Below the pieces are notes generated by a model. That model saw only the letters and a program-made list of their open reading frames with translations, did no database searches and had not been told where the DNA came from. A stretch of 64,000 nucleotides of DNA from NCBI GenBank assembly GCA_965218435.1, contig CBDCKW010000009.1, positions 3,264,001 to 3,328,000 on the forward strand, read 5' to 3'. Every line of letters begins with the position of its first letter. The stretch's first letter is position 1. The position numbers and the translations under genes are program-made. Positions 10,013-11,224 of the stretch are shown here, piece by piece. The stretch comes from Truepera sp. (GTDB lineage: Bacteria > Deinococcota > Deinococci > Deinococcales > Trueperaceae).

Positions 10013-10081
10013 GGGTTACGAACCCGGCGCAGCACCCGCAAAGTAAGAATCTTGTGAGAGTGTTCCCGGTACAGTAACTCC

Positions 10082-10170
10082 AGAAAGCTTCCGCACCTGC
10101 TCTCAACCTCTCCAAGGAAGCTTTCTCCACCTTGTCCCTGCGCTCCCCGACCCCGGCGCAGGGATTTTTT
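10082..10170 (+). ncRNA. Candidate small RNA A: two hairpins with C/U-rich loops and an intrinsic terminator
   Basis: TACAGT -10 at 10070-10075. 11-bp stem 10082-10092/10116-10126 with a 23-nt pyrimidine-rich loop. 10-bp stem 10135-10144/10155-10164 with loop CCCCGACCCC, then T6. Confidence 0.6.
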
Positions 10171-10422
10171 AGGCGGGTGACCTCGTAGCCCGCCGTCGAA
10201 AAGCCAAAGAAGTTACACAGCTGTTCTTGACGCTTCGCTTCTCTTTAGAGGGTCGGCACCGCATGTCTCATCACACATGTGCGGAACCGTTTTACCTCGC
10301 CTGTGTCGGCGTAAGGGTTTGGACGAACGAACCGAGTCGGCTCAGTGTGCAGCAGGCCATTTTGAAGCTGAAGTCCAGCTGCACTGTGCTCTAAAGCTGG
10401 CAGTAAGATAAAAATTTGCGCC

Positions 10423-10495
10423 AAAAAACAGCCTGCCAAACTCAGTCTGACAGGCTGCTTGTCTCTGCTGCACCCGGTCTGCCCCCACCGGCAGT
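10423..10495 (-). ncRNA. Candidate small RNA B (~73 nt): G-rich loop and intrinsic terminator
   Basis: Minus-strand TACACT -10 at 10508-10503; 5' hairpin presenting GGGGGCAG; 13-bp stem CAGCCUGUCAGAC/GUUUGGCAGGCUG followed by U6. Confidence 0.55.
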
Positions 10496-10605
10496 AGTGC
10501 ACAGTGTACGGGTTCTCGGCGACGCGAAACAGATACATAAGTACTCAAAAAGTCCTGCAAATGCTTGATTTACGTGCGGTATATGGGTTGACAACCAGGT
10601 TAAAA

Positions 10606-10663
10606 CGCGTTTAGGTTATCACCGCCGGGGGCAGACCGTAGACACGGCGATAACCTAAACCCG
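10606..10663 (-). terminator. Long hairpin (16-bp stem, 20-nt loop) followed by a short U-run on the minus strand
   Basis: GTTTAGGTTATC (10609-10620) is a perfect inverted repeat of 10649-10660 and extends through a G-U pair on the minus strand. The loop contains CGGUCUGCCCCC. Confidence 0.5.
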
Positions 10664-11029
10664 TAGGCTCCGGACACTTAAAAGCAGCCGCAACCTAGGG
10701 GTTACCTTATGGAAACCAGCTACGCCAAATATAGGTATTTGCTACGTTTACCCCAGCAAGGTTAAGTCGGGCCGACGACCGGACGGTCTCGAGGGTTTGG
10801 TTTGCTGTCCTCAGCAGTGTAGGGGTCAGCAGTAAAGCGCACTGAAGCCGGGGCGGTTACCAGATAAGAGCGCAGAGAACAGCGAAGCGGCCGTTCAGCC
10901 AGGGGCGGTCGCAGCTTGTCAAAGTTATAATGTATCAGGTTGCGATGTATCGTTACGATGTATCAACCAGAAAGGGTCAAAAGGGCTGCGGTGACCATCG
11001 TCCGTCCGGCTAGTATCTTCAGGGCAACC

Positions 11030-11224
11030 CTAACGAAAAACCCCAAGCAAAAAAACCAAAATGCCCATCGCCAAAAACGCAAACCCCATCAGAATATAGA
11101 CGCCCGCGTGGTTTTTACCGGTAACGATGTTTTCGTCGCGTGCGCCGCTCCGAATCCCGTAGCCCAAAAAGATCAGGCTTACTGCCAGCATCAGCGCACC
11201 GAAAAGCGTATCAAGGTGCTCCAT
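11030..11224 (-). CDS. Small two-TM membrane protein
   Basis: GAGGGG RBS; two hydrophobic helices; 64 aa. Confidence 0.7.
   Translation of the reverse strand: MEHLDTLFGALMLAVSLIFLGYGIRSGARDENIVTGKNHAGVYILMGFAFLAMGILVFLLGVFR

Follow-up and report, generated by a model that had tools for sequence, protein, structure and literature searches.

The inverted repeat and its locus

Do two perfectly complementary 12-mers in a gap between genes of Truepera sp. mark a pair of small RNAs that bind each other, or are they a chance repeat in the DNA? In the window, which is the whole 64,000-nt stretch of DNA analysed here, a 1-kb gap is bordered on one side by a plus-strand gene for a TPR protein and on the other by two minus-strand genes, one of 64 codons and then one for a class III aminotransferase. 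The 12-mers, each the exact reverse complement of the other, stand in this gap at 10475-10486 and 10627-10638, as the original prediction had them, and an exact search of the whole 4.8-Mb genome found these two sites only. The inverted repeat extends to 17 nt at 88% when near matches are allowed. Taken alone, the repeat stands out only a little: a 12-bp repeat arises by chance in 5 of 500 dinucleotide shuffles of the gap, and comparable inverted 12-mers number three in the window and 1.8 per 64 kb in the first megabase of its contig (C9). Conservation is what makes the feature real. Many copies across the genome had been named beforehand as the mark of a MITE or REP remnant, but exact search and blastn (which found no second copy of the 1-kb gap elsewhere in the genome) agree on a single copy, and such a remnant was rejected.

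The gap holds two predicted RNA units, A and B, with the following features:

10602..10696, minus strand: RNA A, about 95 nt, with a 5' hairpin (10664-10696), then a long 3' hairpin with a C-rich loop and a U tract; predicted ends
10627..10638, minus strand: CGGUCUGCCCCC, the 12-mer in the C-rich loop of RNA A, unchanged in 4/5 copies, with 10 of its 12 nt kept in the fifth
10704..10709, minus strand: predicted -10 box of RNA A, TAAGGT in 4/5 copies and TAGGGT in 1/5, 6-7 nt before the 5' hairpin, with no canonical -35
10423..10496, minus strand: RNA B, about 74 nt; its 5' hairpin carries a G-rich seed and is followed by an intrinsic terminator; antisense to both A and RNA C (see below); predicted ends
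10468..10486, minus strand: two-part pairing motif of B, a GGGGCA seed and GGUGC(A/G)G, both in 5/5 copies
10423..10460, minus strand: terminator hairpin and U tract of B, with a CCUG...GCAGG core invariant in 5/5 copies
10503..10508, minus strand: TACACT, the predicted -10 box of RNA B; 8/8 antisense units have a TANNNT box 18-23 nt ahead of the G-run

Across copies, A measures 95-116 nt and keeps the order TA(A/G)GGT, 5' hairpin, 20-bp hairpin with C-rich loop, U tract, while B measures 65-74 nt and has, in silico, a -10 box and a terminator, no ORF and a -35 that is not canonical. The minus-strand folds of the A and B hairpins have z-scores of -4.1 and -4.2 (0/200 shuffles), compared with -2.4 on the plus strand. 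Open reading frames spanning the A/B region have 25-97 codons, and no conserved ORF was found across the five A copies. A scan with a consensus sigma-70 promoter gave 0 promoter-like sites, and neither minus-strand terminator was called. The TACACT box and the terminator that had been assigned to RNA B are both present in the sequence. For A, a bare terminator-like hairpin of 16 bp with the 12-mer exposed in its loop had been proposed; the hairpin is real, but its stem is about 20 bp long with G-U pairs, the 12-mer is only partly open because the minimum-energy fold closes part of the loop, and the whole forms the 3' end of a unit of 95 nt that also has a 5' hairpin and its own -10 box. In a four-copy alignment the A stem varies yet keeps its pairs, and the loop is invariant. 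The U tract has 4 nt in the window genome and 5-6 U after the 20-bp stem in relatives.

At least three further A variants occur in DNA contigs from two sequencing runs of one sample, possibly the window's own source; in the one variant that was read base by base the loop is intact and the two changes in the stem preserve its pairs, which is not independent support and is silent on expression. A loose contig end in that sample carries a B variant with both motifs recognisable. Beside these units, three loose direct repeats of 13-14 nt (10924-10965) lie next to a TATAAT between the A promoter and the 64-codon gene, and that gene (11030-11224, minus strand) is a hydrophobic ORF with no Pfam match and a similar sequence at the G005 ortholog.

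Distribution of the A+B cassette

Strong matches to the window feature were found, among 61 genomes searched, only in two members of the same genus, G004 and G005. Including the window genome (G000), these three of the six genomes of the genus carry five A+B cassettes, one in G000 and two in each of the others: three are the window locus and its orthologs in G004 and G005, one follows an MmeI-like restriction-modification gene in G004, and one stands beside a MarR gene in G005. The order is constant on one strand (A, a free spacer, a TANNNT box, B), with 102-151 nt between the paired motifs. Every A has a B, and B was found nowhere else in 128 genomes; the B model, which was built from the same five copies, is strong only at its five loci in these genomes, with three further matches at E 0.011-0.038. 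The five cassettes, all of a single genus, do not count as independent cases.

Pattern scans added no cassettes. The scan of metagenomes gave six matches, none a cassette on inspection; that of the genome collection gave seven, of which two were repeats of counted copies and five were chance; and those of viral contigs gave 0 and 0. Also rejected were a third exact match to the loop in G004, in an apparent lytic transglycosylase gene (frame judged by eye), matches in G082, G112 and G146, which are coding or lack the hairpin, and one-mismatch matches to the C loop in other families, which are not hairpins. In G005, an IS110-family transposase gene (L032 5444-6514) lies between B and a further hairpin, Y, described below.

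RNA C, a family-wide hairpin

The A hairpin model led to a third RNA, here called C, a single hairpin of about 70 nt with a C-rich loop, its own -10 box and a U tract. The copy of the window genome lies at G000:C9:3539083-3539157 (+), 265 kb from A and B. A family model built from 25 C and 5 A sequences detects C in 65/128 Trueperaceae genomes and 28/36 genera, the misses including incomplete genomes as well as whole genera, and in 0/108 genomes of four sister families. All 17 of 17 stem pairs show two-sided changes among 85 aligned members, and 94.8% of cells are paired compared with at most 54% in slid controls, both figures being taken from an alignment fitted to the model. A TANNNT box lies 4-9 nt upstream of 68/78 C-type genes compared with 16/312 control windows, a count that left out the five A copies, one partial match and one short locus. 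Thirty-five C loci are beside the same methyltransferase gene and 25 beside the same quinone-oxidoreductase gene, and these recurrent neighbours point to an ancestral C site.

A scores 48.4 bits against model R2, which includes A itself. A and C match through the upper stem and the loop, but in A the middle of the loop is altered and there is a 5' hairpin in addition, and on this alignment A is a diverged paralog, or sibling, of RNA C.

Rfam gave 0 matches in the window at the gathering score, the outcome of a check that had been proposed with the repeat, and at the E-value setting only chance-level matches for these RNAs; judged by their sequences, A, B and C do not belong by descent to RosA, RsaI, CrfA or any other Rfam family. 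No published description of A, B or C was found in a literature search covering mostly open-access texts without their supplements, whose motif tables could hold C. A, B and C belong to undescribed RNA families.

No conserved mRNA target of C or A was found. The 25 nt before starts contain the word GGGGGCA about twice as often (17 vs 7-8 per bin) in a home-made gene set, where a control is similar at 13, and seed-plus-ATG sites in 10 genomes number 74 vs 60 and 47 vs 37 in controls. Ten candidate target ORFs among 65 loci share no ortholog. Two other roles for C are not supported: as a partner of 16S rRNA, since its best site (-32 kcal/mol) is far below the -50 sites, and as a Y RNA, since TROVE (Ro60) is present in 12/128 genomes and was not found in G000, G004 or G005, the three g1 carriers, compared with C in 65/128.

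Predicted pairing and conservation of RNA B

Pairing energies were calculated by an approximate, accessibility-corrected method of our own. With A, B is predicted to form exactly the 12 bp of the inverted repeat (-21.3 kcal/mol), and with the C of its own genome 20 bp (-26.9 kcal/mol). For 7/7 tested pairs none of 30 shuffles was better, one being equal to the B-A value to the printed decimal. In all five copies B pairs with C as well as or better than with its own A, and each of the five scores better with some other A than with its own, which counts against the sponge reading. A genome-wide comparison of 12,333 seeded sites ranks B and a second unit, B2, at C9:3725536, as the best intergenic complements of C. 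G-rich and C-rich sequences easily score well together: three coding sites outrank B for C, and for the whole A core B falls outside the best 25 sites. B2 is a stand-alone unit of 97 nt at G000:C9:~3725450-3725545 (-), in L093, with a -10 box and a terminator, and at its 5' end it is close to a full antisense of C (-21.7 kcal/mol); it has no adjoining A and no homolog was found in G001-G005. A family-wide pattern for distant antisense units returned only B2 and four coding matches, and this pattern would miss the antisense type of a second genus, g42.

The conservation of B is uneven. Its columns average 63% identity, and outside the terminator the invariant ones face the conserved loop and stem; only a G-rich seed of 6-7 nt and the second motif are kept across copies, and the perfect 12-mer is that of the window copy. 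One copy keeps GGUGCGG although the segment facing it is gone from the A of that copy, as would be expected if the invariant C is a partner. Part of this second motif is also base-paired within the stem of B itself; its conservation could be due to this, which counts against a sponge. Compensation is sparse, with one G-C to A-U change beside the C run in the second G005 copy. The search for homologues with compensatory changes, proposed at the outset, thus found the cassette conserved but little compensation inside the 12-mer. The proposal of two separate RNAs on the same strand, one antisense to the other, finds support in the five conserved cassettes, which have -10 boxes and terminators, and in the lack of many genomic copies, but the pairing is not private to A and B and the perfect complementarity is particular to the window copy. 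The middle of B corresponds to A and its second motif to C, and the complementarity of B continues into the 5' stem strand of A, a pattern that suggests inversion of an ancestral A. Judged by this pattern, B probably began as the A hairpin copied in inverted orientation and then travelled with A as a cassette.

A second cassette in genus g42

The surroundings of all 85 family members were searched for complements, 330 nt on each side and on both strands. A same-strand downstream complement at z <= -3 was found in exactly 7/85, namely the five A copies and two paralogs in g42. Five opposite-strand neighbours reached the same threshold, but these were gapped and judged chance, and those that could be placed lie in coding DNA. 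The g42 antisense units have their own -10 box and a different terminator, and match the altered CCAC/GUGG stem of their paralog; their predicted binding is poor with A-type RNAs (-5 to -12 kcal/mol) and good with C-type RNAs (-19 to -23 kcal/mol). Both g42 cassettes lie after a UvrD-type helicase gene, one of them before an integrase fragment. From these differences in sequence, terminator and binding, rather than from a tree, the layout of a paralog plus its antisense apparently arose twice in Trueperaceae.

No antisense unit adjoins the other 78 of the 85 members, which include many second copies, and most genomes with C show no B-like unit; C therefore does not need one, a point against the sponge reading. 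The g42 genomes G072, G073 and G074 (L149, L180, L182-L189) have 3-5 C-family copies each, with distinct loop and stem variants. The g42 copies form a natural set for studying how siblings diverge.

Possible roles of the cassette

The explanation that we favour, with a probability of about 0.55, is that B acts as an anti-sRNA sponge of the RosA/CrfA kind that would trap both A and C. A and B would be made from their own minus-strand promoters as two small non-coding RNAs, and the open G-rich seed of B would first meet the C-rich loop of A or C. Pairing would then spread into the upper stem, over 12 bp with A and about 20 bp with C, and an RNA with its loop masked in this way would be inactivated by sequestration, so that control would run from B to A and C, which themselves would regulate mRNAs. 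Hfq was not found in G000, and an RNase III domain was found in 0/5 genomes (G000, G001, G004, G005 and G073), the Deinococcus and Thermus controls also being negative; since neither of these nor Ro60 was found, loop-initiated pairing and sequestration would be the likeliest mode of action.

A type VIII-like, RNA-only toxin-antitoxin or addiction cassette, in which B either neutralises an otherwise harmful A or disables the conserved C, with A as a decoy that soaks B up, is an unlikely reading in spite of several features that recall such systems. Both RNA partners are encoded within the 200 bp typical of type VIII, about 105 nt apart and together in 5/5 copies; the distribution is patchy, with two loci per genome in places and half of the genus without any; and the layout seems to have arisen twice. 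Signs of a link to mobile or defence DNA are mixed: an MmeI-like gene, IS110 or an integrase fragment lies near 3/7 cassettes, but none is in viral contigs. On the other hand, there are many extra C copies with no antisense neighbour, three cassettes occupy one stable syntenic site, the pairing has no cognate specificity and B2 stands alone without an A. A type I toxin-antitoxin was rejected, as the A copies share no ORF and the 64-codon gene is not beside the two paralogous cassettes. We also hold it rather doubtful that the locus is a selfish cassette of new design, in which C, possibly indispensable, was duplicated, an inverted duplicate came to silence the original as well, and the duplicate serves as decoy antidote, the whole invented twice and working without Hfq, RNase III or CRISPR-Cas.

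Similarly doubtful is the notion that the complementarity is a relic, with B derived from an inverted duplication of A and both RNAs now acting separately on mRNAs or proteins of their own. The complementarity runs past the loop into the 5' stem strand of A, as an inversion would leave it, and the middle of B varies with no matching change in A and shows no cognate preference. Against this, in an RNA of low overall identity the invariant columns outside the terminator are those facing the conserved loop and stem, linkage survives duplication to new loci, and a second genus has the same layout with the antisense following its own paralog.

It is improbable that A and B form one read-through transcript in which intramolecular pairing of the two motifs serves as a switch or a signal for processing. 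The short U tract of A in the window genome, the common strand, the short spacing and the lack of a canonical -35 before B would fit such a transcript, but relatives have the longer U tract, TANNNT precedes 8/8 antisense units, the spacer varies freely in length and sequence, and no ORF follows B to be controlled. A DNA repeat, or the plus-strand promoter of a divergent G-rich RNA that had been offered as an alternative, is very improbable. Inverted 12-mers are not rare genome-wide and TTGACA-18-TAGGTT is present here as written, but there is a single genome copy, none of the three relatives read at this position has the TTGACA, the stem varies so as to keep G-U pairs on the minus strand, and the U tracts and -10 boxes all point to that strand.

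Comparison with known systems

In the excerpts of the reports cited here, the closest parallel to a sponge acting on A and C is CrfA of Caulobacter crescentus, a purine-rich stem-loop of which pairs with the pyrimidine-rich core of the siblings SisA-D (PMC12559287). The likeness extends to one sibling copy at a conserved locus with paralogs elsewhere (PMC12559287). CrfA was found on Hfq (PMC12559287), which was not found in the window genome, and there is no Rfam match here; also unlike CrfA, the antisense unit lies directly behind its sibling and looks derived from it. In RosA of Bacillus subtilis (with RoxS and FsrA) and RsaI of Staphylococcus aureus (with RsaE, RsaG and RsaD), G-rich single-stranded regions of a stand-alone RNA bind C-rich regions of several sRNAs (PMC8216469). 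RosA has about 229 nt and three G-rich regions (PMC8216469), whereas B has about 74 nt and a single two-part motif that is near-antisense to the whole hairpin top, and the Truepera RNAs belong to a different phylum and have no sequence match to RosA or RsaI. The sponges described in these reports were found by cross-linking or RIL-seq (PMC12559287; PMC8216469).

The type VIII systems CreTA and SdsR-RyeA likewise have two RNA genes within 200 bp, and creTA allows a same-strand layout, but SdsR and RyeA overlap on opposite strands and CreA works through CRISPR-Cas (PMC10767807), whereas A and B are tandem, non-overlapping and directly complementary. RNA C recalls the actinobacterial 6C RNA, which has two hairpin loops with runs of six or more C (PMC5014011), in being small and taxon-wide with a C-run in a hairpin loop; unlike 6C RNA, it has one loop, was found only in this family and has no Rfam match.

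The logic is thus of a known kind and the arrangement is new, with an antisense unit behind its sibling and seemingly derived from it. An uncatalogued, strongly conserved small-RNA family and its likely natural inhibitors come from a little-studied lineage, and a sponge of this sort would be readable from the sequence. Its likely origin by inversion is visible, seemingly twice, which makes the origin of sponges testable, and B would offer a handle to switch C off and learn its role.

Other elements of the cluster

Three more elements accompany A and B in the gap. A candidate small RNA, X (10082-10170, plus strand), has a -10 box at 10070-10075, a hairpin with an invariant CUCUCAACCU loop and a terminator; it is conserved in G004 and G005 and was not found elsewhere in the 128-genome set, and it points towards B and A. 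Before the -10 box of X lies a conserved direct repeat, GTAAGA-N5-GTGAGA (10043-10059, plus strand), with 11-bp spacing; similar words stand at two other places in the genome and also before some C genes. This repeat resembles a response-regulator box. Hairpin Y (10254-10293, plus strand) has a UCUCAUC loop and a U tract, occurs also at the G005 ortholog and beside a C-family gene in G074 (L185), and is possibly, by its sequence, a fourth small RNA of the cluster.
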